DNA of 64,000 nucleotides from a virus. The translations under genes were made by a program, and so were the position numbers. The DNA is taken from positions 78,478 to 142,477 of the IMG/VR virus record IMGVR_UViG_3300018432_000001. One strand, given 5' to 3'. Each line of letters begins with the position of its first letter. Position 1 is the first letter of the stretch. Shown piece by piece: positions 3,035-52,317 of the stretch. The notes beneath the pieces were generated by a model. That model did no database searches, was not told where the DNA came from, and saw nothing but the letters and a program-made list of their open reading frames with translations.

Positions 3035-5260
3035 GTGCCTATCGTGTTGCAGCCTGTCGACCAGCTCGCGCACAACGAGCTGGCGCAGCGGCTCGCCTGC
3101 TGGGCCAAAGCCGAAGACGGCTTCACCGACAATGCCCTGATCTACCAGTCCTGCTGTGTCTCCCCCACCGGGCAGACGCTGGGCCGGTGGGTCGTTGACG
3201 AAGCGCTGTGCGCCGAGTACGGGCCGTTCGACTTCACCGCCAACGAAGGCGACGTTATTGTCTGCCCGACGCCGGGTTCGGCCGAGTACACCAACTACTA
3301 CATCTACGACGACGACGTCCACGCTATCGACCCGAACACCTGCATCGAGCAGCTGCTCGCGGCGCCGACAGGCCTGAACTCGCCCACGCAGGGACCCACC
3401 ACCGTGGACCTGGCGTGGGACGCCGTCCCTGACGCTCAGCGGTACGTCGTCCGCTGGTCTTTGGCTGGTCAGGACGACTGGACGGAGCTGGCGCCCACGT
3501 TCCTGCTGACCGCCGAGGTCACGGGCCTGACCGACGAAACGAGCTACGACTTCCAGGTGCAGGCGATCGCCGTGGGCTTCGTCGACTCGCCGTGGTCGGC
3601 CACGCTCACGCAGGCCACCACCTCGCTGGGGACGCTCGCAGCGCCTACGGGGCTCGCGACCCCATCGGCCACCGGTACCACCATCGACGTCACCTGGAAC
3701 GCCGTCGACAACGCCACCGGGTACACCGTGGAATGGTCGCCCACCGGCGCTGGAACGTGGACTCCGGCGACCACGGCCACGAACTCGTACACGATCACCG
3801 GTCTGACCTTGGACACGTCCTACGACATCCGCGTCAAGGCGACCGCACCGGGCTGGACCGACTCGCCGTATTCGGCCCAGATCATCGGCTCTACCGAGGC
3901 GCAGCTCGCCACTCCGGCGGGGCTCGCGTCGCCCTCGCAGACCGGCCTGACCGTGAACCTCACGTGGTCGGCGGTCACCGACGCCAACGAGTACGTCGTG
4001 CGCTGGTCTCCGGCCGGTGCGGGCACCTGGACTGAACTGGCGCCAGTAGGCATCACTAGCGCGACGGTGTCCGGTTTGACCGCCTCTACCAGTTACGACT
4101 TCCAGGTCAAGGCCCAGGCCGAGGACTTCGTCGACTCCGCGTGGAGCACCACGCTGACCCAGTCCACGGCGGCTGTCCTGGCGACGCCGGTACTGACGAG
4201 CCCATCGCAGACGGACACCACGGTCGCTTTGACCTGGGGTGCAGTGCCGAATGCGACGTCGTACACCGTGCAGTGGTCGCTGGCGCCGTCCGGTTCCTGG
4301 AACGCCATGCCGGACGTGTCGGGTACCGGGCAGACCGTCACGGGCCTGACCGCTGCCACGTCCTACCGGTTCCGGGTGCTGGCGCACGCTGCCGGTTGGA
4401 CCGACTCCGCGTGGTCGGCCGAGCTGACTCAGGCGACCGATGCCGCCCTGGCAGCGCCGACCGGGGTGAACAGCCCATCGCAGACCGCCTCGACGATTGA
4501 CGTCGCATGGACTGCCGTGGCGGGCGCGGACGGGTACACCGTCGAATGGTCCCCGGCGGGTGCGGGCACGTGGACGCCTGCGACGAACGCGGACACCACA
4601 TACACGATCATCGGGCTCGCGGCCGACACCGCCTACGACATCCGCATCAAGGCCACCGCGACCGGGTTTGCCGACTCGGCGTACTCGACGGTGCTCACGC
4701 AGTCGACGCTGGAAGTGCAGCTCGCTGCACCGACCGGGTTCGCGAGCCCCTCGCAGACCGACACGAGCATCAACACGTCCTGGGACGCCGTTGACGACGC
4801 CGAGTCCTACGTCGTGGAGTGGTCCCCGGCGGGTGCAGGCACGTGGACCCCGGTCCCCGCTGCCACGACTACCCAGGAGATCACGGGTCTCTCAGCCGCC
4901 ACCAACTACGACCTTCGGGTCAAGGCGATCGCAGACGACCACATCGACTCGACCTACGCAACGCTCACGCAGGAAACGCATGGGCCGCTGCTCGCGCCGA
5001 CCGGTCTCGCCAGTCCCTCCCAGACGTCGACCACGGTCGACCTCACCTGGAACGCGGCCATCAACGCCGATTTCTACGTCGTGCGCTGGTCGCCTGCGGG
5101 GGCCGGGACCTGGACTGAGGAACCGCAGGTGTCGGGGACCTCGGACACCGTCTCGGGGTTGACGGCCTCGACTTCATATGACTTCCAAGTCAAAACCATT
5201 GCGGACGGTTTCGCCGACTCTGGCTGGTCCGGCTCGCTTACCCAGTCAACTACCGCCTAG
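3035..5260 (+). CDS. Protein with seven FN3 repeats and a Cys-containing N-terminal domain
   Basis: Seven ~90-aa FN3 repeats; N-terminal ~105 aa shared with 5274..6161. Confidence 0.85.
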   Translation: MPIVLQPVDQLAHNELAQRLACWAKAEDGFTDNALIYQSCCVSPTGQTLGRWVVDEALCAEYGPFDFTANEGDVIVCPTPGSAEYTNYYIYDDDVHAIDPNTCIEQLLAAPTGLNSPTQGPTTVDLAWDAVPDAQRYVVRWSLAGQDDWTELAPTFLLTAEVTGLTDETSYDFQVQAIAVGFVDSPWSATLTQATTSLGTLAAPTGLATPSATGTTIDVTWNAVDNATGYTVEWSPTGAGTWTPATTATNSYTITGLTLDTSYDIRVKATAPGWTDSPYSAQIIGSTEAQLATPAGLASPSQTGLTVNLTWSAVTDANEYVVRWSPAGAGTWTELAPVGITSATVSGLTASTSYDFQVKAQAEDFVDSAWSTTLTQSTAAVLATPVLTSPSQTDTTVALTWGAVPNATSYTVQWSLAPSGSWNAMPDVSGTGQTVTGLTAATSYRFRVLAHAAGWTDSAWSAELTQATDAALAAPTGVNSPSQTASTIDVAWTAVAGADGYTVEWSPAGAGTWTPATNADTTYTIIGLAADTAYDIRIKATATGFADSAYSTVLTQSTLEVQLAAPTGFASPSQTDTSINTSWDAVDDAESYVVEWSPAGAGTWTPVPAATTTQEITGLSAATNYDLRVKAIADDHIDSTYATLTQETHGPLLAPTGLASPSQTSTTVDLTWNAAINADFYVVRWSPAGAGTWTEEPQVSGTSDTVSGLTASTSYDFQVKTIADGFADSGWSGSLTQSTTA

Positions 5261-22050: not shown

Positions 22051-23873
22051 TGGCCCGCTGCGGATGCAACACGGCCATGTCGACCACGTGCGACGCGATC
22101 ATGACGTGCATTGCCGACAACCTCGGTCCTGGCCTGGACTTCAACGAGTCGACCGGGCAGATCGACTTGGAGATTTCCACCGACGCCGGAAACACTGCGA
22201 CCATTGGGACCGACGGCGGATTCTACGCCCCCGCTTCCACCGGGCCTGGTGAGATCGTCTGGCCTGTCACTGTGGCGACGCTGCCCGAGCAGGCCATCGG
22301 TGCGACCGGCGGCGGTATCGGTGTCGGCCCTTCAACGTCGCCGTACCTCATCGAGTACTGCATCGCCAACGGCATCGACATGTATTCCACCACCGTGCTG
22401 CTCGGGTCCGACGGCGTCGCGCTGGAAACCATTCAAGGCGCTGGCAGCTCGATCACCGCCTTCACCGACAACCCCGGGTCGATCACATGGGGCCAGTCGT
22501 CGTCGTTGACGATGACCGCGATCAATTACGACGCCGGGACCCGCGATAACCCCACCGGCGACAACTCCAATGCGCCCGCAGCGCTGCAGATCCCGTACGG
22601 GGGCTGGGCCGGGTTCTATCAGAACCAGTACACCGGGCGTCAACTGGCAGAAATGCTGCGGCTCGTCCGGGGCCGGATGGTTGTGGACCTGCGCGTCAAC
22701 CGCAATGGGGTGACACCCGATGAGATCGAGGCAGCGATCGTCACTACCGTGCAGACAGTGGTAGATGCGGGCGCCCAGGACTGGTGCATCATCAATGTTC
22801 CCGGATACCTCGATGACGACTCGCCTTCCCCGATAGGAACGTGGGTTCCTCTTGTAACCGCAGCGGGGATCACGGCGGCGGTCAACCTGATCACGGAGGC
22901 GAGCGCGACGGGCATTCAGCCGGTCGCCACCATCGTCGCGTCGGGGGCGACCTGGGTCTCGGCCATCCGCGACGACGGCATGGACGGCACCTTGAACGAT
23001 GCGCGGATCACCGAGCTTGTCGCCGCCGGACTTCAGGTGATGGCACGTACGACCTCGCGGCAGTACTGGACGACCCACAATTTCACTACGTTGGGTGTTC
23101 GGGCCGTCGAAGGCCAGGACGCGGTCTACGCCCGAGGCTCCCGTGGGGAGACCGGGGACCTCAACTACCGTCAGACGCTCATTCCCGGTTTGGGTACGCG
23201 AACTGCCATCATCGGCGCGTTGACGCACGTCACCGATGACCAGCGTTCGCTGTGGCACGGCGGTTTCGCCCGGCTGGACCTGTCGGGTCGCTGGTTCCCG
23301 ATGCGGTATGCGTGGAACGGGCTACTCATTCCTACTGAGGCCAATCAGCTGCTGGGCACCATCTGCCCGATCCCGAACGCCACCGACTACGAGATCCGAC
23401 TACGGGTACGCCGCGATCCGGCCGCTGTTATGAGCTCCAGCCAAGAGGTCGGCATCTTCTTCGCGATCCCCGATGACCGCGACATCACCACCCCCAGCGG
23501 CACTACGAACCCGGTCAAGGACGGGTACATGGCCCGGTTGACGTCCCAGAGCACGGGAACGTCGTTCCGGCAGCTGTCCATCCGCCGGTTCACGAACGGT
23601 GGCTTCACCACCATCGCTACCGAGAGCAACACCGTCGCGTTGCCCACTGACTCGTGGGCCGATCTGACCGTGCGCGTGGAGGGGTCCCAGCTGACGTTCA
23701 TCGTGACCGTGGCAGGGGTGACACGGACACTGTCGGTCGCCGATGCCACTTGGCGGGGGCCCTACGCGGCCTACGCCTGGCGCGATGAACCATCGGCGGC
23801 GTCGGGGGCGTACCCGGGATTCGTCCACGGTTACACCAATCCGGAAGACCTGGTGATGTACGCGCCGCTCTAA
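22050..23873 (+). CDS. Second receptor-binding protein, paralog of 20191..22050
   Basis: Same MARCGCN..TTCDAI..C.A.NLGPGL start and collinear motifs throughout. Confidence 0.65.
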   Translation: MARCGCNTAMSTTCDAIMTCIADNLGPGLDFNESTGQIDLEISTDAGNTATIGTDGGFYAPASTGPGEIVWPVTVATLPEQAIGATGGGIGVGPSTSPYLIEYCIANGIDMYSTTVLLGSDGVALETIQGAGSSITAFTDNPGSITWGQSSSLTMTAINYDAGTRDNPTGDNSNAPAALQIPYGGWAGFYQNQYTGRQLAEMLRLVRGRMVVDLRVNRNGVTPDEIEAAIVTTVQTVVDAGAQDWCIINVPGYLDDDSPSPIGTWVPLVTAAGITAAVNLITEASATGIQPVATIVASGATWVSAIRDDGMDGTLNDARITELVAAGLQVMARTTSRQYWTTHNFTTLGVRAVEGQDAVYARGSRGETGDLNYRQTLIPGLGTRTAIIGALTHVTDDQRSLWHGGFARLDLSGRWFPMRYAWNGLLIPTEANQLLGTICPIPNATDYEIRLRVRRDPAAVMSSSQEVGIFFAIPDDRDITTPSGTTNPVKDGYMARLTSQSTGTSFRQLSIRRFTNGGFTTIATESNTVALPTDSWADLTVRVEGSQLTFIVTVAGVTRTLSVADATWRGPYAAYAWRDEPSAASGAYPGFVHGYTNPEDLVMYAPL

Positions 23874-37523: not shown

Positions 37524-37625
37524 GGTTGGTTGTAGCAAACAAACCGGAGCCGACTCTACCGGAAACGAGAGTACCTCGTCAAATCCGTAGGGCGTGTCCG
37601 GTGTCACCGAAAGGACATGATGCCC

Positions 37626-44304: not shown

Positions 44305-45817
44305 GGTCGCCTGCTTTCTTGAGTTCACGTTGGTACCAGCGTTGCAGCTGGTCTTCGGTCGCCTCACCGGCGAGGTAGTCGTCGATCCAGGCGATGGCCT
44401 GGTCGTCGAGGTGCTGCTGGGCGCGGGTGACCGCGACGTAGCACAGCTGCAGCAAGGCGGGGTCCATCGGACGCAGCTTCCCTTCGCCGTCCAGTGACGG
44501 TTCGGGGAAGTCGGCGCCGATCTTGACCCGAGGGTACTGCAGGCCCTTGGCGCCGTGCCCGGTCATGACCGTCAGATCGACCGGTCCCTTGTCGGTGTCC
44601 TTGAACTGCTTGGCGATCTTCAGCAGCTGGGCGGCACCCCACTTCTCGACCAGGCGCACGAACACGGCCAGTTCACCGGCGGTCGGGTCGGACTCGACGT
44701 AGTGCAGCACCTCCCGCCAGGAGCCGAACGTCGCCAGCTCGGGGTAGTCGCATTGCAGTCCGGCCTGCAGGTCCAGGGCCGCTTTGCACATCTTCTTGAT
44801 GTTGTCCGACACCCGCTTGGCCATGCCGACACGCCGCCCGGCCACCAGCGCCGTGTGGGCGGCCTCGACGGCACCGGAGTTGGTGCGGCACAGGATGACG
44901 TCGGGCTCATGCAGGGGGCCGACCGTTCCACCGTCGCCTCGGCCCCTCAGGCGCAGGTCGCAGTCGAGGGCGGCCAGCCACTGGTTGGCGCGGTCGGCGA
45001 TGGCCGGACCGAACCGGAACGATTCGGTGAGGCTCAGGCGCTGGTCGGCGGGCCACTTCGCGAGCGCGTCCTGGGCACCGCGCCAGGCGTACAGGGTCTG
45101 GTTGACGTCGCCGACGGCGATGAGTTGGCACTGCTGGCGGGTGAGGACGTCGAGCATGAGCGCGTCGATGTCCTGCCCTTCGTCGAGCATGATGAAGTTG
45201 ACCTTGAGCTTGGGGTTCTTCAGTGCCCACATCTTCCGGTAGTGATCGTGGGTGAATTCGGCGCGGTCGGAGTGGGGGTCTTGCAGGTCGGTCCACATGG
45301 CTTTCGCGAACGGCAGCACGTGCGCTTTCAGCGCCTTGTGGGCGTCGGGGTCGATGCCCTCGACGGGGCCCACGTGCCAGGCGGTCAGCTCGCGGTCGGC
45401 CGAGCGCGCGAAGCGCTGCACCGCGAGCTTGGCGAGGATGGCGACGCCGATGGAGGTGATGGTGCGGTCGGGGGCCGGGGCGAACGGTTTCGTGCCGAAC
45501 GCGTCGGCCAGCTGTGCGCCGTTGCGCCCGGTGTCCCGGCCGCTCCAGCGGCGCGCGTAGTGGCGGCCGACGTCCATGGCCACGCTGTGGCTGGTGTGGC
45601 ATTCGACGGTGCCGGGGAAGTGTTGCTTCGCGTCGGCGCGGTTGTTCTTGCCGAACGCGATGTACAGGCCCATCTTCAGGCGCCGCTCTTTGGCTTGGGC
45701 GCCCAGCAGCAGTGTCGCGGTTTTACCGGTTCCGGCCAGGGCCTGCACGGCGACGTTCTTGCCTTCCTCGATCGCGGTGACGATCCGGTCCTGCTCATCG
45801 GTGGGCGTGAAGGTCAT
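44297..45817 (-). CDS. UvrD/REP-like SF1 helicase
   Basis: ALAGTGKT, LDEGQD, VGDVNQTLYAWRGA, LTESFRF, H.AKGLQ, YVAVTRA. Confidence 0.9.
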   Translation of the reverse strand: MTFTPTDEQDRIVTAIEEGKNVAVQALAGTGKTATLLLGAQAKERRLKMGLYIAFGKNNRADAKQHFPGTVECHTSHSVAMDVGRHYARRWSGRDTGRNGAQLADAFGTKPFAPAPDRTITSIGVAILAKLAVQRFARSADRELTAWHVGPVEGIDPDAHKALKAHVLPFAKAMWTDLQDPHSDRAEFTHDHYRKMWALKNPKLKVNFIMLDEGQDIDALMLDVLTRQQCQLIAVGDVNQTLYAWRGAQDALAKWPADQRLSLTESFRFGPAIADRANQWLAALDCDLRLRGRGDGGTVGPLHEPDVILCRTNSGAVEAAHTALVAGRRVGMAKRVSDNIKKMCKAALDLQAGLQCDYPELATFGSWREVLHYVESDPTAGELAVFVRLVEKWGAAQLLKIAKQFKDTDKGPVDLTVMTGHGAKGLQYPRVKIGADFPEPSLDGEGKLRPMDPALLQLCYVAVTRAQQHLDDQAIAWIDDYLAGEATEDQLQRWYQRELKKAGDHV

Positions 45818-46259
45818 CGGCTCCCTTTCTGCGGGCGGCGCGGCGCATTGACTGCTGCTGACATTGCAGCCGGTAGCGCAGCACCTGCAAGTCGGTGTAG
45901 GCCAGCTGGAGACGGTGCGTCGAGGGCGCCCACGCGCACCAGCGTTCAGCGCGCAGGTGCACGTGGGTGGCGTCGTGACGCGCGGACAGGCCCGAGCTGA
46001 TACCGAAGAGGTAGCCGTTCTCGGGGCTGAACTGCCACACGCTGCAGAACCAGCGGGTGGCGTCGCGCAGGACGGCCAGGATCGGTGCGACCTCGGCGCG
46101 TTCGATCGACCAGGCGGCGCCGGTGCGCCGGAAGCGGTGCTCGGGCGTGCCGTCGGCCCCCAGGGGGGCGTGCAGAATGAAACTGGCGGGGCGCATTTCG
46201 GCGCTCCAGCCGCCCATGTCCGGCTTCGGGTCGATCATGGTTCCTTGTCGTGGCCTCAT
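45795..46259 (-). CDS. Hypothetical protein
   Basis: ORF between the tRNA array and the helicase. Confidence 0.5.
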   Translation of the reverse strand: MRPRQGTMIDPKPDMGGWSAEMRPASFILHAPLGADGTPEHRFRRTGAAWSIERAEVAPILAVLRDATRWFCSVWQFSPENGYLFGISSGLSARHDATHVHLRAERWCAWAPSTHRLQLAYTDLQVLRYRLQCQQQSMRRAARRKGADDLHAHR

Positions 46260-46359
46260 GTGAATAGTTCAGCGTAGACCTACCCGGCAGCGAATGCGCG
46301 TTCGACTCGCTACCGAATGTGAGGATCGTTAGCGGCCAGCATAGCGGCCCACGGGGGAC

Positions 46360-46398
46360 AAGGAAAGGGCCCCGGAGACACCCCCACCTCCGAGGCCC
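46360..46398 (-). terminator. Terminator of the tRNA array
   Basis: GGGCCTCGGAG / CTCCGGGGCCC followed by TTTCCTT. Confidence 0.65.
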
Positions 46399-46401
46399 AC
46401 G

Positions 46402-46475
46402 TCGGGCTGACAGGATTCGAACCTGCGACCCCCCGCTCCCAAAGCGGGTGCGCTACCAAACTGCGCCACAGCCCG
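46402..46475 (-). tRNA. tRNA-Pro(TGG)
   Basis: CGGGCTG acceptor, CCCGC-TTTGGGA-GCGGG, GTTCGAATC. Confidence 0.92.
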
Positions 46476-46516
46476 GAAGGCGCCAGCGTGCGGGCGCTGG
46501 CGCCGGTCCCTGCGAG

Positions 46517-46587
46517 AGCCCTCGCGGGGAATCGAACTCCGGTCGCTCGCTTACGAGGCGAGTGCTCTGCCACTGAGCTACAAGGGC
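46517..46587 (-). tRNA. tRNA-Thr(CGT)
   Basis: GCCCTTG acceptor, CTCGC-CTCGTAA-GCGAG; one T-stem mismatch. Confidence 0.85.
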
Positions 46588-46588
46588 G

Positions 46589-46661
46589 AGCGGCAACCGG
46601 GGATCGAACCCGAGACCTTCTGGTTGGAAGCCAGACGCTCTACCAGCTGAGCTACTGCCGC
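46589..46661 (-). tRNA. tRNA-Gly(TCC)
   Basis: GCGGCAG acceptor, TCTGG-CTTCCAA-CCAGA, U73. Confidence 0.92.
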
Positions 46662-46662
46662 G

Positions 46663-46735
46663 TGCCCAAGGCAGGATTCGAACCTGCAACCTTCCGGTCC
46701 GGAACCGGATGCTCTGTCCGTTGAGCTACCTGGGC
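46663..46735 (-). tRNA. tRNA-Arg(CCG)
   Basis: GCCCAGG acceptor, TCCGG-TTCCGGA-CCGGA. Confidence 0.92.
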
Positions 46736-46740
46736 ATTGT

Positions 46741-46818
46741 GTACAGCAGTTCCGGCTGCTGCACTGCTTCCCTTTCACGCCCTACCGCCGGAGCAGCTTT
46801 GCGGCAGTACCGCTGTGC
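46741..46818 (-). ncRNA. tRNA-sized structured RNA inside the array (candidate)
   Basis: Terminal stem GCACAGCGGT/ACTGCTGTAC with internal hairpins. Confidence 0.35.
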
Positions 46819-46838
46819 GAGCCCAAGGAGCCGGGCCG

Positions 46839-46912
46839 TACCCAGGGTGGGACTTGAACCCACACTGTGCGGTGTTTGAAGCCGCTGCCTCTGCCGATTG
46901 GGCTACCCGGGC
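46839..46912 (-). tRNA. tRNA-Leu(CAA), short variable loop
   Basis: GCCCGGG-TAGCCCAATCGGCAGAGGC; GCGGC-TTCAAAC-ACCGC with a C31-A39 mismatch. Confidence 0.85.
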
Positions 46913-46958
46913 GTGTTCCTCTACTGTCACCGTCACCCTACGCGATGCGGCGGTGGTG

Positions 46959-47030
46959 TGCTCAGGGAGGGATTTGAACCCCCAACCCTCGGTATGTGAC
47001 ACCGATGCGCTGCCATTGCGCCACCCGAGC
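46959..47030 (-). tRNA. tRNA-Val(CAC)
   Basis: GCTCGGG acceptor, TCGGT-GTCACAT-ACCGA. Confidence 0.88.
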
Positions 47031-47097
47031 CGGTCGCGGCCGGTCGCGCGCCGCCTGCTCACCATACCGCTCGTGGGTGCCAGCACCAACAGGTTTT

Positions 47098-47130
47098 TGG
47101 TGGGGCGCAACGGGTCGAAGGTTGCGCCCC
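47098..47130 (-). ncRNA. tRNA minihelix-like element ending in ACCA (candidate)
   Basis: GGGGCGCAAC-CTTCGACCC-GTTGCGCCCC-ACCA. Confidence 0.45.
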
Positions 47131-47172
47131 GGATAGAGAAAGGCGATCCCACTGTAGCAGCAGGAAGCGCCG

Positions 47173-47454
47173 CTACAGCCGCTGCTGTTGCTGCTGTTGC
47201 TGCGCGATGAGCGCGGTGTTCGCGGCGGTGTTCTTCAGGTTGATGTCCTGGTTGGCCTCGCGCACCAGGCGGCTCATGCGGAACATGTCGACGAACCACA
47301 GGATGAACAGGCCGCCGAAGGAGACGCTGTACTTCACGCCGCGCGACGTGTCGCCCAGGTAGTAGTGGTGGGCGCCGACCCAGCCGAGAGTCCAGTACCA
47401 CAGGTAGGCGCGGCCAAGGGTCTTGTTCTTCTGGTAGCCGTGAACGGGGGGCAT
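47173..47454 (-). CDS. TM2-domain membrane protein
   Basis: AYLW..LGWVGAHHYYLG...FGGLFILWFVD; AAGGAG RBS; poly-Q tail. Confidence 0.8.
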   Translation of the reverse strand: MPPVHGYQKNKTLGRAYLWYWTLGWVGAHHYYLGDTSRGVKYSVSFGGLFILWFVDMFRMSRLVREANQDINLKNTAANTALIAQQQQQQQRL

Positions 47455-47553
47455 AAGAGCTCCTTCAGAGGGGCGCCGGGGCGCGGTGAGATTGTTTCAC
47501 CCATGGTACGACCGAGGGCCGCCAGCGCGGTGCTGGCGGCCCTAACGGGTCCA

Positions 47554-47589
47554 TGGGTGGGGTGCAGCAGGTTTCGACTACTGCACCCC
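47554..47589 (-). ncRNA. 12-bp stem / 7-nt loop minihelix-like element (candidate)
   Basis: GGGGTGCAGTAG-TCGAAAC-CTGCTGCACCCC-ACCCA. Confidence 0.4.
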
Positions 47590-47654
47590 GTTTCGAGCGG
47601 ACACCCATGATCAAGGCGTTTCTCGTCGCGCCCCGGGAGAGGCACGAGTAGGTG

Positions 47655-47738
47655 ACCCGGGGGCGGCGGTTCGAACGCCGCTCCCGGGGGGAGCCCATCC
47701 TGTGTGCACCAGGGCGGTCTCCATTCGCTACTGCCAGG
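47655..47738 (-). ncRNA. Non-canonical tRNA-like RNA with GCA anticodon and long variable arm
   Basis: TA-GCG-AATGGAGAC-CGC D arm, CCTG-GTGCACA-CAGG, CGGCG-TTCGAAC-CGCCG T arm, imperfect acceptor, U discriminator. Confidence 0.55.
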
Positions 47739-47749
47739 AGAAGGCTACG

Positions 47750-47826
47750 TAGCAGGGGCGGCGGTTGCAGTCGCCGCGCCTTTTTGCGAGTGATACCCAA
47801 GGTCAAGGCATCCATTCGGCCCCGCG
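47750..47826 (-). ncRNA. tRNA-like RNA related to 47655..47738 (candidate)
   Basis: Shares GAATGGA and GCGGCG..AACCGCCGCCCC; terminal GCGGGG/CCCTGC stem. Confidence 0.4.
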
Positions 47827-47847
47827 TCCCGTGAGAGACGCAAGTAG

Positions 47848-47928
47848 TGGTGCGCCTGTGAAAAGACCGCGTCAATCCCATGAACCAGTCTTCCTTCGCA
47901 CAACGGGGGTCGTGCGTGCGCCAGGCGC
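47848..47928 (-). ncRNA. Three-way-junction RNA with a perfect 7-bp acceptor stem and ACCA (candidate)
   Basis: GCGCCTG...CAGGCGC-ACCA enclosing two hairpins. Confidence 0.45.
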
Positions 47929-47977
47929 GACGCAGCACCGACTGTACCGCACCCGTTGCAGATCAGGCGAACAACCC

Positions 47978-48214
47978 TCACGAGTGACGAGTCGAGCGGC
48001 GACGGGCCGCATCGTCGAGGCGCTCGGCCGATCGTTCCTGGGGCGCGTGCGCGCCTTCATGGGCGTCCTCGCGCAGGCACCCCTGCGGGTAGCGGGCCCG
48101 GAAGGCGCGGGCAGTGAGCGCACCGCACCGGCCCGCCTCGGCGGCGTCGCTGCGCCCCCGGGGGACGGTCTCGGTGAACTCCTCGATGGCGATCCGGTCA
48201 AGCCACGCAGTCAT
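47978..48214 (-). CDS. Hypothetical protein
   Basis: ATGA coupling; GGAGG RBS. Confidence 0.5.
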   Translation of the reverse strand: MTAWLDRIAIEEFTETVPRGRSDAAEAGRCGALTARAFRARYPQGCLREDAHEGAHAPQERSAERLDDAARRRSTRHS

Positions 48215-48720
48215 GCTTCCTCCAGCGGTGTCGGCGGCTCCCAGACCCAGTCGGTCGCGCAGACCGTGGCGGGAGGCTCGTAGGCCAACGGAGGACCGGG
48301 CATCGTGTAGGCATCGATGCTGGTACCGCTGGCGGTGAAGGCAAGGACGTAGTCCTCGGGGTCGAGACCCATCTGCTCCAGCTGCGGGCGCAGCAGGTCG
48401 CGGTAGAGCTCGTCGAGTCTCCCCGACATGGCCGTGGCAATCGGGTCCGGAAGCGGCTCGTTGTAGGGCGCGTCGAAGACCTCGCCGGTGGCAGGCACGT
48501 ACTGGCCACGGAACGGCGCGTGATCCATCCAGTGGTTGCCGACGCGCATAGGAGCAATGAGCTCGGGCGGCATCGCCACCATCAGTGCCAGCGGCAGCCG
48601 CTGCAGGTCGGGGTCGTCGCGCATGAGCCGCGCGGTGCGGGCGGTTCCCCACTCCCAGCACCCGCGCACGAAGCGGGCCCGCGCGCCTCGCCGTTCGGCC
48701 TTGGTCGTGCGCTGGCCCAT
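48211..48720 (-). CDS. Hypothetical protein
   Basis: TGATG coupling. Confidence 0.55.
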   Translation of the reverse strand: MGQRTTKAERRGARARFVRGCWEWGTARTARLMRDDPDLQRLPLALMVAMPPELIAPMRVGNHWMDHAPFRGQYVPATGEVFDAPYNEPLPDPIATAMSGRLDELYRDLLRPQLEQMGLDPEDYVLAFTASGTSIDAYTMPGPPLAYEPPATVCATDWVWEPPTPLEEA

Positions 48721-48956
48721 CACAGGGCCTCGTCGATCAGCAGCCGCTCGGTGGGCACGAAGAGGCCCGCGTCCCACCGCCAGACCACCCATTCGGGGGC
48801 GCTTCCTTCGGCGACGGCCGCTTTGATGGCGTCGTACAGCTGCGGCGGGACGATGGTGGGGCGCGGCTGCAGGCTGGCCGCGTACGCGCGACGGCAGTCC
48901 TCGGCGTAGGCCTCGATGGCGGCGAGCACGTCGCCCGTGCTCTGCGGCATGCTCAT
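48720..48956 (-). CDS. Hypothetical protein
   Basis: Coupled ORF. Confidence 0.5.
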   Translation of the reverse strand: MSMPQSTGDVLAAIEAYAEDCRRAYAASLQPRPTIVPPQLYDAIKAAVAEGSAPEWVVWRWDAGLFVPTERLLIDEAL

Positions 48957-49408
48957 GGCCCGGTCACGTCCTTGGTGATGAGCTTGACGTGGGGTCCGAT
49001 GGCCGGGTCCGAGATGCGGTACATGTCGCCGCCGTAGTAGCCGTTGGAGGCGTTGCGGAAGGAGACGGCCGCCGAGACCGGGCCGAAGGCGACGCTGGTG
49101 GTGGTGAGGCGGTACCCGTAGACCTTGACCTCGTCGTAGTCGACGTTGCCCACGCCCTCCTCCCAGGTCTCGGGCCGGTAGCCCGGATCGCCGGGGGAGA
49201 GGTCGACTGCCTCGAAGCCGGTGACGAGTTCACGGGCGAGCAGGTTCTTGACACCGTAAAAATCATGGAAGTAGGAGCGGGAGCAGCAGTCACCTTCGAC
49301 GCAGTAGCCGACCAAGCCCCGGTCGGTGTCGAAGATGAGCTGCTCCTCGCCCATGTAGATCGCATAGATCCGTGCGCCGATGAGCGCGTCGTAGTCGCGG
49401 GGATACAT
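48953..49408 (-). CDS. Conserved phage protein (DCC...SNGYYGG type)
   Basis: GDCCSRSYF and FRNASNGYYGG motifs. Confidence 0.65.
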   Translation of the reverse strand: MYPRDYDALIGARIYAIYMGEEQLIFDTDRGLVGYCVEGDCCSRSYFHDFYGVKNLLARELVTGFEAVDLSPGDPGYRPETWEEGVGNVDYDEVKVYGYRLTTTSVAFGPVSAAVSFRNASNGYYGGDMYRISDPAIGPHVKLITKDVTGP

Positions 49409-49499
49409 GCCCGGCCTCTCACTGGAAGAAAACTCAAGACGCCACGAAAGCGGCGATGTCTCTCATTATCGGACATTCCAGTGTGATTGGGGTATTGCT

Positions 49500-51794
49500 T
49501 TAGCGGTGTGCCGCGAGCCTTTCGGCCAGGCCGGTATGGCGCTTCGTCGCGCTCATCGTTTTCACGGCTTTCGCCAAGGCCTTCGGGGAACCCACGAGCA
49601 CCACCCGCGACTGCGCGCGCGTGATGGCCGTGTAGATCAGGTTCCGCACCAGCATCTGGTACGACTGCATCGTCACCGGGATGACCACGCACGGGTACTG
49701 CGACCCTTGTGACTTGTGGATGGTGATCGCATACGCCAGCGCCAGCTCGCGGATCTCACCGGCGGCGTAGGCGATCGTGTGCCCTTCATCGGTTTCGATG
49801 ACGACGGCCTCGTCGCCGCCTGCCGGGTTGACGCTCACCACCCGCGCCGGGGTGCCGTTGAAGACCCCGGCGTGGCCGCCCCACTCCTCGGGGCCTTTCT
49901 CGTAGTTGTTCTTGACGACCATGACGCGGTCGCCGGGGCGGTAGAGGATCGTGTCCTCGCCGATGCTGGCGTCGTACTCGATGCCCTGGGAGGGGTTGAG
50001 CTCCTGCTGCAGGCGCGCGTTCAACGCGATGACCCCGCAGGAGCCTTTCCGCTGCGGGGTGAGCACCTGGATGTCGCCCGCTTCGATGCCGTCGGCGGCG
50101 AACTGCGCCGGGATGCGCTTGCAGACCATCTCCACCACCCCTTCCGCTGCCTTGTCGGCGTCGGTGAGGGACCAGAAGTGCAGGTCGGGCCAGCCTTTCA
50201 ACACCGGGTAGGTTCCAGCGTTGACCTGGTGAGCGACCTGGACGATCCCCGAAGCCGCCTTCTGCCGGAAGATCTGCGTCAGCGCGGTCGTACAGGCGCG
50301 CCCGGAGGCGATGAGGTCGCGCAGCACACTCCCGGGCCCGACCGAGGGCAACTGGTCGATGTCGCCGACCAGCAGCAGCCGCGCGCCGCGCTTGAGCGCC
50401 CGCGTCAGGTACCGCGCGAGCGAGACGTCGAGCATCGACGACTCGTCGCACACCACCAGGTCGGCGTCCAGCGGATCTTCAGGGCCGACACGAACGCCCC
50501 CGTTCTCGCCGGTGCCCAGGCCGATGAGGCGGTGCACCGTCGCCGCCGGTGCACCGTCGGCCAGCTCGGACATGCGCTTGGCGGCCCGCCCGGTGGGGGC
50601 GCACAACTCCACCCGCCACCGGCAGATCGCGGCGGCCAGCGCCACCGTGGCCACCGTGTGGGACTTGCCCACGCCGGGTCCGCCGGTGAGGACTGTCAAC
50701 GGCTGCTCCAGTACCGCCCGCACCGCCTGCTCCTGCTCGACTGTGAGGCCCCGCTCGCCCAGGAGCCGCTCGATCTGCGCCTGCTGCGGGGGCGAGGGCG
50801 GTGCCACGGTCGCTTCGGCCAGGCGCCGCAGATGCTGCGCCAGGTCGGATTCGAGGTAGTGCATGTGGCTGGTGTACGCCCGCTCCTCCTCCACGACCAG
50901 GCGTTCTTCGTCGACGGCCAGTGTCACAGCCGCCGCGCAGGCGTCGGGCCGCACGCCCAGCAGCCGCGTCGCCTGCTCGACGAGCACCGCGATCGGCAGG
51001 AAGCAGTGCCCCTCGGACTGTGCGGTCTCCAGCGTGTACGCCAGTCCGGCGCTCACCCGCCGGGGGTCGCTGCGCTCCCAGCCCAGGGCCCCCATGGCGA
51101 TCTTGTCGCAGGTGGTGAACCCGATGCCTTTAGCCTTGGTGAGCGCGTATGGGTTGGACTTGATCATCACCGCTCCGTCGGCACCGAACACCTCCCAGAT
51201 CGGGGGCGCCAGCGACGTGGACGCCCCCACTTCCATCAGCGCCAGCGCGATCGCGTGCTGCTTGGCGAGAAGGGTCCAGCCTTCGGCGATCACTTCCAGC
51301 TTCTTGGGGCTGATCCCTTTGACCTCGATCAGCCGCCCGATCTCCTCGTCGAGGATGCGGAGCGTGTCGTCGCCGAAGCGCTCGGCGATCCGCCGGGCGA
51401 TAACGGGGCCGATGCCCTTGATGCGGCCCTTGGCCAGGTACTCCTCGGCCTGTGCCGCATCGGCAGGTGGCTGCGGGGCATAGCTGGTGAACTTGAACTG
51501 GCGCCCCCACTTGGCGTCCTCAACCCACTCGCCGTGGAGGGCGACCATGTCGCCCTCGTGCGGGTCCAGCATCGGTCCGACGGCCTTCTCGATCTGGCCG
51601 TCGGGGCAGCGGATGGACAGGACCGACCAGCCCGACTCGGCCGAGGTAAACGTGACCCGTTCAACCACGGCGCGCATCGCCCCGCTGGTGTCGGCGGACG
51701 CCTCCCCGCCGGGGCGGGGCGCGTTCTTGAACAGCGGCAGGGGCTTTTGGACTTCGAAGGTGAAATCAAGGCCGTCCATGGACGACCTCGACAT
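49500..51794 (-). CDS. recD2: RecD2-like SF1B helicase
   Basis: HhH motifs IKGIGP and GIGF..CD, LTGGPGVGKS, CAPTGRAAKR, DESSM, VGDIDQLPSVGPG, AYAITIHKSQGSQY, YTAITRA. Confidence 0.92.
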   Translation of the reverse strand: MSRSSMDGLDFTFEVQKPLPLFKNAPRPGGEASADTSGAMRAVVERVTFTSAESGWSVLSIRCPDGQIEKAVGPMLDPHEGDMVALHGEWVEDAKWGRQFKFTSYAPQPPADAAQAEEYLAKGRIKGIGPVIARRIAERFGDDTLRILDEEIGRLIEVKGISPKKLEVIAEGWTLLAKQHAIALALMEVGASTSLAPPIWEVFGADGAVMIKSNPYALTKAKGIGFTTCDKIAMGALGWERSDPRRVSAGLAYTLETAQSEGHCFLPIAVLVEQATRLLGVRPDACAAAVTLAVDEERLVVEEERAYTSHMHYLESDLAQHLRRLAEATVAPPSPPQQAQIERLLGERGLTVEQEQAVRAVLEQPLTVLTGGPGVGKSHTVATVALAAAICRWRVELCAPTGRAAKRMSELADGAPAATVHRLIGLGTGENGGVRVGPEDPLDADLVVCDESSMLDVSLARYLTRALKRGARLLLVGDIDQLPSVGPGSVLRDLIASGRACTTALTQIFRQKAASGIVQVAHQVNAGTYPVLKGWPDLHFWSLTDADKAAEGVVEMVCKRIPAQFAADGIEAGDIQVLTPQRKGSCGVIALNARLQQELNPSQGIEYDASIGEDTILYRPGDRVMVVKNNYEKGPEEWGGHAGVFNGTPARVVSVNPAGGDEAVVIETDEGHTIAYAAGEIRELALAYAITIHKSQGSQYPCVVIPVTMQSYQMLVRNLIYTAITRAQSRVVLVGSPKALAKAVKTMSATKRHTGLAERLAAHR

Positions 51795-52317
51795 CGGGCC
51801 ACGGATCGGCGTCCTCGTCGCGCCACACCTCGATCAGCGGGTCCCCGAACGGCTGCCCGTTGTTGTAGACGGCGCCGTCAGGCGACACGGGCTCCAGGTG
51901 CCAGATGGTCCAGTCCACCCCGTTCCCGAACGAGATCGTCCGCTCCTCGGGCGCGACCAGGATCTGGGTCACCGACGGCGCCAGACCATCGGGGAACAAC
52001 CGCTTGTGCAGCTCGTCGAGGATGGGGTGGAGCTCGCGGCGCATCTGCGGCTGCGGCTCGTACGCCTTGGGTTCGGGCCAGTACGTCTGGGCGCCCCCGC
52101 GCTGCATGCTCATGAGGTTCTGCATGCGCTCCCACACCCCCGGGTCGGCCTCGAACAGGCGCTGGGCGTCCCGGAACAGGCTCAGGCGCCGCACTTCCTG
52201 CTCCTGGCCGTTCACGGCCGGGAAGCTGGCGTTCACCTGCGCGGCGTCCACGGTCATCGACTGCAGCGATTCGTCCCGCGTGCCGTCGTCCAGCAGCGGC
52301 ACCAGTTCTACCAGCAT
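51766..52317 (-). CDS. Hypothetical protein
   Basis: AAGGAGG RBS before MLVELV. Confidence 0.6.
   Translation of the reverse strand: MLVELVPLLDDGTRDESLQSMTVDAAQVNASFPAVNGQEQEVRRLSLFRDAQRLFEADPGVWERMQNLMSMQRGGAQTYWPEPKAYEPQPQMRRELHPILDELHKRLFPDGLAPSVTQILVAPEERTISFGNGVDWTIWHLEPVSPDGAVYNNGQPFGDPLIEVWRDEDADPWPDVEVVHGRP

Follow-up and report, generated by a model that had tools for sequence, protein, structure and literature searches.

Conserved RNA structures on the tRNA strand accompany the tRNA operon in a lineage of uncultured phages

Do the short, strongly folding elements in front of a phage tRNA cluster imitate tRNAs, or do they serve the transcript that carries them? We addressed this question at one locus of the IMG/VR virus record IMGVR_UViG_3300018432_000001, which is 142,477 base pairs (bp) long and has direct terminal repeats. 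The window, that is, the whole stretch of DNA analysed, is the right-hand 64 kb of this record (64,000 nucleotides (nt), record positions 78,478 to 142,477). Within it, six tRNA genes are preceded on their own strand by a folded leader that opens with a three-way-junction RNA, here called E-I, and continues as a series of hairpins; a preliminary description had taken these elements for tRNA mimics. Our analysis showed that the leader elements form structures at the level of RNA, on the strand of the tRNAs. The structures exist, are strand-specific, have stems kept paired by selection, are confined to the locus and accompany the tRNA operon in related phages. In the reading that we favour, at roughly 50%, the locus is the structured non-coding front of the phage tRNA operon, in which E-I and the hairpins act in cis as processing or stability modules.

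The minus strand carries every gene from about position 52000 down to 43700, so that upstream of the tRNAs corresponds to higher coordinates. The elements on which the argument rests are as follows.

47941..47946, minus strand: putative promoter P1, whose -10-like hexamer TACAGT (within GCGGTACAGT) lies 12 nt upstream of E-I.
47848..47928, minus strand: E-I, 81-nt three-way-junction RNA; the fold runs from 47928 to 47852 and is followed by ACCA.
47821..47844, minus strand: hairpin H2, CUUGCGUCUC-UCAC-GGGACGCGGG.
47750..47813, minus strand: Module A, a small hairpin around GCCUUGACCUUGGG and a long hairpin (47780..47755) with loop ACUGCAAC.
47654..47738, minus strand: Module C, a small hairpin CCUG-GUGCACA-CAGG and the long hairpin "a" (47688..47656, loop UUCGAAC).
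47626..47647, minus strand: hairpin UCGUGCCUC-UCCC-GGGGCGCGA.
47554..47621, minus strand: Module B, a small hairpin (GCCUUGAUCAUGGG) and GGGG-hairpin b (47589..47559), then ACCCA.
47498..47561, minus strand: long irregular stem D, core 47543..47515.
47098..47130, minus strand: GGGG-hairpin e, loop CUUCGACCC; the hairpin runs from 47130 to 47102 and is followed by ACCA.
47061..47070, minus strand: second -10-like motif GCGGTATGGT, about 35 nt before tRNA-Val, with a putative promoter role.
47030..46401, minus strand: tRNAs Val, Leu, Arg, Gly, Thr and Pro (Val 47030..46958; Pro ending at 46401).
46479..46504, minus strand: hairpin 3 nt before tRNA-Pro, loop CCCGCA (z -2.4).
46398..46367, minus strand: intrinsic terminator (14-bp stem and U tract) directly after tRNA-Pro.

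A DNA search of cultured phages gave no close relative: matches were confined to the tRNA parts, the 900-nt leader was matchless, and the nearest cultured-phage helicases were at most 33% identical. Protein-anchored searches of IMG/VR and Logan recovered seven related contigs, all from uncultured phages. The window encodes phage tail genes and two helicase genes, RecD2-like and UvrD-like, that flank the leader and tRNA locus, and this RecD2-like to UvrD-like gene order is common to the phage and all seven relatives. The closest cellular homologues of the helicase are actinobacterial, and the host group is, judged by this homology, probably the actinobacteria. The relatives are listed with their protein identity to this phage.

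L005 (IMG/VR): helicase 92% identical; the same six tRNAs.
L127 (Logan): helicase 90% identical; the same six tRNAs; the contig begins within the leader, downstream of the E-I point.
L128 (Logan): helicase 85% identical; the same six tRNAs.
L006 (IMG/VR): helicase 84% identical; five tRNAs, without Thr.
L129 (Logan): helicase 72% identical; TM2-like gene, E-I, tRNA-Gln, six hairpins, tRNA-Pro.
L130 (Logan): helicase 60% identical; E-I, one hairpin, tRNA-Pro, terminator; TM2 gene and modules absent.
L125 (Logan): TM2 protein 66% identical; leader, TM2 gene, tRNAs Leu, Gly and Pro.

We compared the folding energy of the leader with that of shuffled sequences. On the minus strand, the 476 nt of 47930..47455 folded at -249.6 kcal/mol vs -197 +/- 6.5 in shuffles (z -8.1), and the plus strand of the same stretch gave z -4.0. 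A corresponding asymmetry was observed in L129, where the 464-nt spacer between tRNA-Gln and tRNA-Pro had z -6.0 on the operon strand vs -2.5 on the opposite one. The stems covary in relatives. Strand asymmetry of folding, G.U wobble variants and compensatory changes together place this structure in RNA of the minus strand. Among the Rfam models run on the window, none but tRNA reached its gathering score, the weak matches being chance, and the motifs of the leader modules were not found elsewhere in the 142-kb genome. The minus-strand stretch 47977..47455 is non-coding and lies between a conserved gene of 78 amino acids (aa) and the TM2-domain gene. Small proteins within the leader itself (frames of 78 and 157 aa) were rejected, as a frameshift or stop breaks them in L005 and L006, and gene callers called no gene on the leaders of L125 and L128.

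E-I consists of a 7-bp closing stem (GCGCCUG/CAGGCGC) and two hairpin arms, and was present in 6/6 relatives covering that part of the locus (L005, L006, L128, L125, L129 and L130). All seven copies have the identical three-way-junction minimum-energy fold, with z from -1.2 to -3.5, the latter in this phage. C-to-U changes in the closing stem keep the pairing as U.G, the first arm (P2) covaries and the second arm varies in length, and no open frame across E-I is conserved among the relatives. The tail after the stem is ACCA in this phage, L005, L006 and L130, ACUA in L128 and GCAA in L125; in L129, tRNA-Gln starts 2 nt after the stem. Since the tails vary among relatives, an encoded CCA is not a conserved property of E-I.

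In 7/7 copies, 12-13 nt separate the end of a hexamer of the form TA(C/G)(A/G)GT from the G with which E-I begins, and the intervening bases differ. Because the hexamer and its spacing to E-I are kept while the bases between them vary, we infer that the TAnnGT hexamer is a -10 element and that E-I is the first RNA of the tRNA operon. A hairpin just before E-I (GGUGCGGUAC..GUGCUGCGUC) was rejected as such and re-read as a promoter-like motif, because its sequence, not its pairing, stays conserved. The second -10-like motif, in the form CGGTAT(G/C)GT, is kept in five phages. Scans of IMG/VR and GTDB genomes with the end patterns of E-I gave, among the matches listed, chance matches only, none with the upstream hexamer and a phage context; such scans say little on the absence of E-I elsewhere. 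At 3437-3468 of L125, upstream of the full E-I, lies a shortened second copy of the promoter-like motif and the E-I 3' strand (CACAGGCGCACCG), which suggests, by its sequence, duplication and deletion within the L125 leader. During a scan for the motif GGTAsAGT we also met a promoter-like arrangement at 37527-37560 (minus strand), with TTGACG, an 18-nt spacer and TAGAGT.

Downstream of E-I a unit of two hairpins recurs, a small one around GCCUUGAUCAUGGG and a long one, with 2-3 units per phage and 7 copies in the three closest phages. Phages whose helicases are 85-92% identical differ by whole units, and the breakpoints fall within repeats. This gain and loss at repeat boundaries indicates independent units, not one integrated large RNA, and sequence comparison points to recombination between repeats as the way in which modules are gained and lost. 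Among the single hairpins, H2 is kept in L005, L006 and L128, where one-sided changes retain pairing, and the hairpin at 47626..47647 is present in L006, with a similar stem in the L127 sequence. Hairpin b has 12 bp and a 7-nt loop (47589..47554, z -5.8), and its ACCCAUGG tail is paired into the next stem, stem D, in the minimum-energy fold. Stem D has 12 perfect pairs here, 20 in L005 and 16 in L128, and is a putative site for a double-strand-specific RNase or a putative end of the leader RNA. Hairpin e, of 10 bp plus a mismatch and a 7-nt loop (z -5.5), is kept in L005, L006, L127 and L128; its loop is CUGGUAA in L127 and its tail ACAA in L005 and ACUA in L127.

Selection on the stems was evident in two sets of hairpins. 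Orthologues of hairpin "a" have 13 pairs, 5 of them with changes on both sides, and 95% of cells are paired; its covariation score was reached by 2/500 shuffles. In place of UUCGAAC, the loop reads GUCGAA, UGUCCAC or AUGUUGCGUC in orthologues. Six phages together hold 14 GGGG(C/U)GC hairpins, none with fewer than 10 consecutive pairs, in stems of 10-12 bp; conservation extends over the seven outer pairs, and covariation at positions 8-11 runs through A-U, G-C and G.U. Loops of 7 nt occur in 8/14 members vs 16% of strong hairpins elsewhere in the genome, and the tail is A-C-(C/A/U) in 11/14 (the rest CAG, GCA, CAA, AGC), counts that overstate the signal because the members are paralogues and not independent. 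Tail variants among the relatives are ACAA, ACUA, CAAAC, AGCAA and GCAA. The pattern GGGGCGC..GCGCCCCACC matched more than 114 loci in IMG/VR, of which 28 were true hairpins; outside this phage family, only one (L030) adjoins a tRNA. As the pattern itself forced ACC, it cannot measure ACC enrichment. In the L125 leader, 3825-3885 holds three tandem copies of a 16-nt unit (GGGGTGCGGCGCCATT) with a hairpin at the end.

The arrangement in the two most distant helicase relatives bears on which gene the structures belong to. In L130, E-I, a hairpin and tRNA-Pro occur without a TM2 gene, and in L129 the TM2-like gene stands before E-I, and the 464 nt that separate tRNA-Gln from tRNA-Pro are taken up by six hairpins of 10-12 bp. 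The hairpins thus accompany the tRNAs, not TM2. From this gene order, E-I and the hairpins appear to belong to the tRNA operon rather than to the TM2 gene, with the hairpins taking positions like those of tRNA genes.

We then asked how far the elements resemble tRNAs, using a cloverleaf above the family threshold (29 bits, Rfam RF00005) as the test. RF00005 gave no match in 47031..47930 even at E<=10, and likewise none in the leaders and spacers of L005, L006 and L125; ARAGORN at default settings made no tRNA call among the leader elements. That no element is a normal cloverleaf, as the preliminary description had stated, is thereby confirmed. Only with the -ps option did ARAGORN report 47738..47654 as a pseudogene-grade "tRNA-Cys(gca)", a call in which the acceptor has 2 mismatches and the D stem 2 bp. 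Module C as tRNA-Cys was rejected: the call is sub-threshold and made in one genome only, a 7-nt anticodon loop in constant register is not kept (the loop of the orthologue has 6 nt in L006 and is displaced in L127), and the module is absent in L005.

Minihelix geometry (about 12 bp, 7-nt loop) was found in hairpins b and e, so that the two minihelices described earlier stand, on the tRNA strand and upstream of the tRNAs, with ACCCA after b and ACCA after e. A conserved T-loop (UUCRANY) was not found: some copies have UUCGAAC, and elsewhere the loop is CUGGUAA, UGUCCAC, AUGUUGCGUC or AGUGGAAA. A free 3' N-CCA is seen here as ACCA after e and E-I, and relatives have ACAA, ACUA, GCAA or CAAAC. 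Because the cluster tRNAs also lack CCA, a missing CCA on the elements is not decisive; the NCCA tails described earlier are unconserved in relatives. Two further elements had been drawn as related D/T-loop folds (47826..47750, z -1.6; 47738..47654, z -2.2), and their minimum-energy folds are separate hairpins instead. The E-I three-way junction was upheld. The element described within the tRNA run, in the Leu-Arg spacer, folds with z -0.14.

The cis-acting reading is favoured because features of the tRNA top half (T-loop, free NCCA) appear unselected and cloverleaf readings fail in relatives. In this scheme, transcription would probably start at the -10-like TACAGT (47946..47941), and E-I (about 80 nt, lineage-specific) would be the first RNA made. 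A changeable array of very stable hairpins with 10-13-bp stems and mostly 7-nt loops would follow, then the small TM2-domain mRNA, another hairpin and the six tRNAs, with transcription ending at the terminator after tRNA-Pro. Host RNase P would cut at the tRNAs and possibly also at minihelix-like hairpins, a double-strand-specific RNase may cut the long stem D at its 12-20 perfect pairs, and the hairpins would then shield the released RNA pieces. Acceptor/T-arm halves of tRNA genes since decayed may be the source of some modules. The promoter, the co-transcription, the choice of nucleases and whatever function the elements have are all inferred here. The single tRNA-strand transcript proposed earlier is consistent with the hairpins between tRNAs in L129 and with the terminators: none with a hairpin and U tract was found in the leader or on the minus strand between 47950 and 46398, and the only terminator-like sites on the minus strand of 45500..49500 are 46398..46367, whose position after tRNA-Pro is kept in L127, L128, L129 and L130, and 49455..49440.

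Several observations weigh against this scheme. Processing and stability form the default reading of such a locus, and no test singled it out. Real recognition by tRNA enzymes would also fit the commonest form, a 12-bp stem and a 7-nt loop, and the N-C that often follows the stems. A sigma-70 scan showed no promoter at the locus, and a promoter consensus of the GGTAnnGT type was not enriched genome-wide. Several more -10-like motifs, at 47158, at 47070 and ahead of the TM2 leader, could reflect more than a single transcript, and the L125 leader is weakly structured (z -1.8).

The same structures have been weighed under other explanations, of which the mimic reading is closest to the preliminary description. 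If they were true trans-acting mimics, RNase P and 3' trimming would free the minihelices and E-I, the host CCA-adding enzyme would complete them, and the accumulated RNAs would serve either as decoys against defences that target tRNAs or as effectors on tRNA enzymes. In stem length (10-13 bp) and loop size (7 nt) the hairpins match an acceptor/T-arm minihelix, the 7-nt loops and A-C-(C/A/U) tails common in the GGGG family would be expected (the cluster tRNAs likewise end N-C without CCA), some loops read UUCGAAC, and units are gained and lost as tRNA genes are. However, the loop and tail counts come from paralogues and are inflated, and orthologous loops (UUCGAAC, GUCGAA, UGUCCAC, AUGUUGCGUC; CUGGUAA for e in L127) and tails vary. 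T-loop-like loops and ACCA/ACC tails thus change freely in relatives while the stems are kept, which does not bear out the mimic claim. In addition, hairpin b has its tail paired into the following stem, and no gene for a CCA-adding enzyme (PF01743) was found in the genome. The G3.U70 pair, which is the identity mark of alanine tRNA, occurs in none of the GGGG-family stems. We therefore regard trans-acting mimics as improbable. We hold equally doubtful a related proposal, in which the hairpins are natural encoded minihelices that soak up, or are modified by, enzymes attacking acceptor ends, an RNA-only counter-defence with E-I as a further acceptor-end mimic. Transcription control in cis is unlikely as well, if less so: E-I would modify RNA polymerase for processive antitermination, as the put RNAs of phage HK022 and rRNA operon leaders do; pausing or termination would take place at the hairpins. 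The structure that comes first behind the -10-like hexamer is E-I in every case, no matter what lies beyond, E-I is the only element kept in every relative covering that part, including the module-less L130, and dense GC-rich hairpins lie downstream of it. This argument is purely positional, though; Rfam showed no similarity to an antiterminator RNA, and as the hairpins have no U tracts there is little obvious termination for E-I to overcome.

A further explanation, which we consider quite unlikely, is that most of the locus is non-functional debris, decayed tRNA relics and locally duplicating palindromes tolerated in an array of fast turnover. The presence or absence of units between phages with 85-92% helicase identity, the exchange of the Leu-Arg spacer for an unrelated one, the pseudogene-grade tRNA score of Module C and the tRNA size of the 72-73-nt spacer in L005 and L006 would all fit such decay. 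It accounts poorly for the compensatory and wobble changes that keep stems of 10-14 bp perfect across orthologues, and for E-I and the pre-tRNA-Pro hairpin, which are kept down to 60% helicase identity; the Rfam tRNA model also sees no relic in any leader or spacer examined. An element at the level of DNA, either a replication origin or inverted repeats bound by protein, is suggested by the position of an inverted-repeat-rich site between the RecD2-like and UvrD-like genes. It is highly improbable, given that the spacing of conserved half-sites varies and the inner stems covary, as fits a hairpin and not an operator, and that G.U pairs and the strand asymmetry of folding indicate minus-strand RNA. 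The window has 66% G+C with no AT-rich segment seen, and inspection by eye, made without a repeat-finding tool, showed no direct repeats of the iteron type.

Against the background of known systems, the locus is of a familiar kind. The C4 antisense RNA of phages P1 and P7 and the tRNA-end mimics serving as punctuation in phage operons share with this locus the idea of tRNA-like ends drawing RNase P to cut long phage transcripts, but neither an Rfam C4 match nor an antisense target was identified here. Synthetic acceptor-TpsiC minihelices and hairpins followed by RCCA are model substrates of RNase P and of the CCA-adding enzyme. The hairpins here resemble these substrates in their stem of about 12 bp, 7-nt loop, one base and CC(A), with hairpin e a near-exact fit, and differ in that loop sequence and CCA are unconserved in relatives and some tails are base-paired; minihelices have been reviewed (PMC9976931), and the dependence of RNase P on RCCA has been described (PMC12710915). 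The statement in the preliminary description that no described phage system is organised in this way was too strong. In T4, two small RNAs of unknown role, RNAC and RNAD, come from transcription of the tRNA region (PMC3014915), and the large ornate RNAs GOLLD and ROOL occur near tRNAs and in prophages (PMC5737381). With RNAC and RNAD the locus shares structured RNA other than tRNA that lies, on the tRNA strand, within a phage tRNA cluster or next to it; no relation in sequence or family was found, and here the predicted RNAs form a whole changeable array with an mRNA within the unit. Its likeness to GOLLD and ROOL is a long structured non-coding RNA beside tRNAs in phages or prophages, whereas here there is no Rfam match, the RNA is modular with units lost between close relatives, and the phage lineage and probable host group differ. 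Taken together, the E-I and hairpin set is a candidate, uncatalogued RNA family of an already known kind rather than a demonstrated new mechanism. That tRNA clusters of phages can carry additional small RNAs is no recent finding, and the locus adds a well-delimited example from uncultured phages; new are E-I in every relative covering that part, the hairpins between tRNAs and the loss of NCCA in more distant relatives. If tRNA-processing enzymes do handle the units, they would provide low-cost punctuation of a mixed mRNA and tRNA transcript; if free minihelices accumulate, a classic laboratory substrate would have its natural counterpart in them.

The preliminary description overlooked a real protein gene in the range that it covered, and the features around it are the following.

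47455..47497, minus strand: TM2 5' untranslated region, with Shine-Dalgarno GAAGGAG at 47466..47460.
47173..47454, minus strand: TM2-domain gene, 93 aa (Pfam PF05154, E 1.3e-10; PHROG 8793, unknown function).
47151..47179, minus strand: hairpin spanning the TM2 stop codon, whose 3' arm holds the invariant GCTACAGT.

TM2 orthologues are 66-88% identical, and the 5' untranslated region is near-invariant in the three closest phages, exceeding the conservation of the coding region. A scan of metagenomes with the TM2 alignment returned an already known contig and one weak unrelated match, and a scan of the genome collection returned none. The protein bears a poly-Q tail, and the gene lies inside the tRNA operon here, with its counterpart upstream of E-I in L129. 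Upstream of the leader, the conserved 78-aa gene (47978-48214, minus strand; start MTAWLDRIAIEEF) overlaps the stop of the upstream 193-aa gene, and a 77-78-aa gene occupies the matching position in L125, L128 and L129.

For the tRNA cluster, ARAGORN and Rfam agree on the run Val-Leu-Arg-Gly-Thr-Pro, as had been described, and the sequence shows N73 then C after each of the six, with no encoded CCA. The hairpin before tRNA-Pro is kept in every relative, including the Thr-less L006, with wobble variants in L127 and L128. The Leu-Arg spacer lies within this run.

46736..46837, minus strand: Leu-Arg spacer, 102 nt, which folds like shuffles (z -0.14 to -0.55).

This spacer is not conserved. L005 (5907-5979) and L006 (6113-6184) have an unrelated spacer of 72-73 nt, and the Leu-Arg gap in L127 and L128 has the same size. 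Three short arms, one with loop UUCGAGU, can be drawn by eye in the spacer of L005 and L006, which may, from its size and sequence, be a decayed tRNA; the Rfam tRNA model found no match in it. The whole genome has 9 tRNAs, and CCA is encoded only in tRNA-Lys(ttt) (23043-23118 of the whole genome), which lies outside the window and far from the cluster. Within the cluster, tRNA-Arg, tRNA-Gly and tRNA-Thr abut (46588-46735, minus strand), with a single C between each discriminator and the first base of the next tRNA; with this spacing, one RNase P cut would leave the upstream tRNA ending in N73-C, ready for CCA repair.

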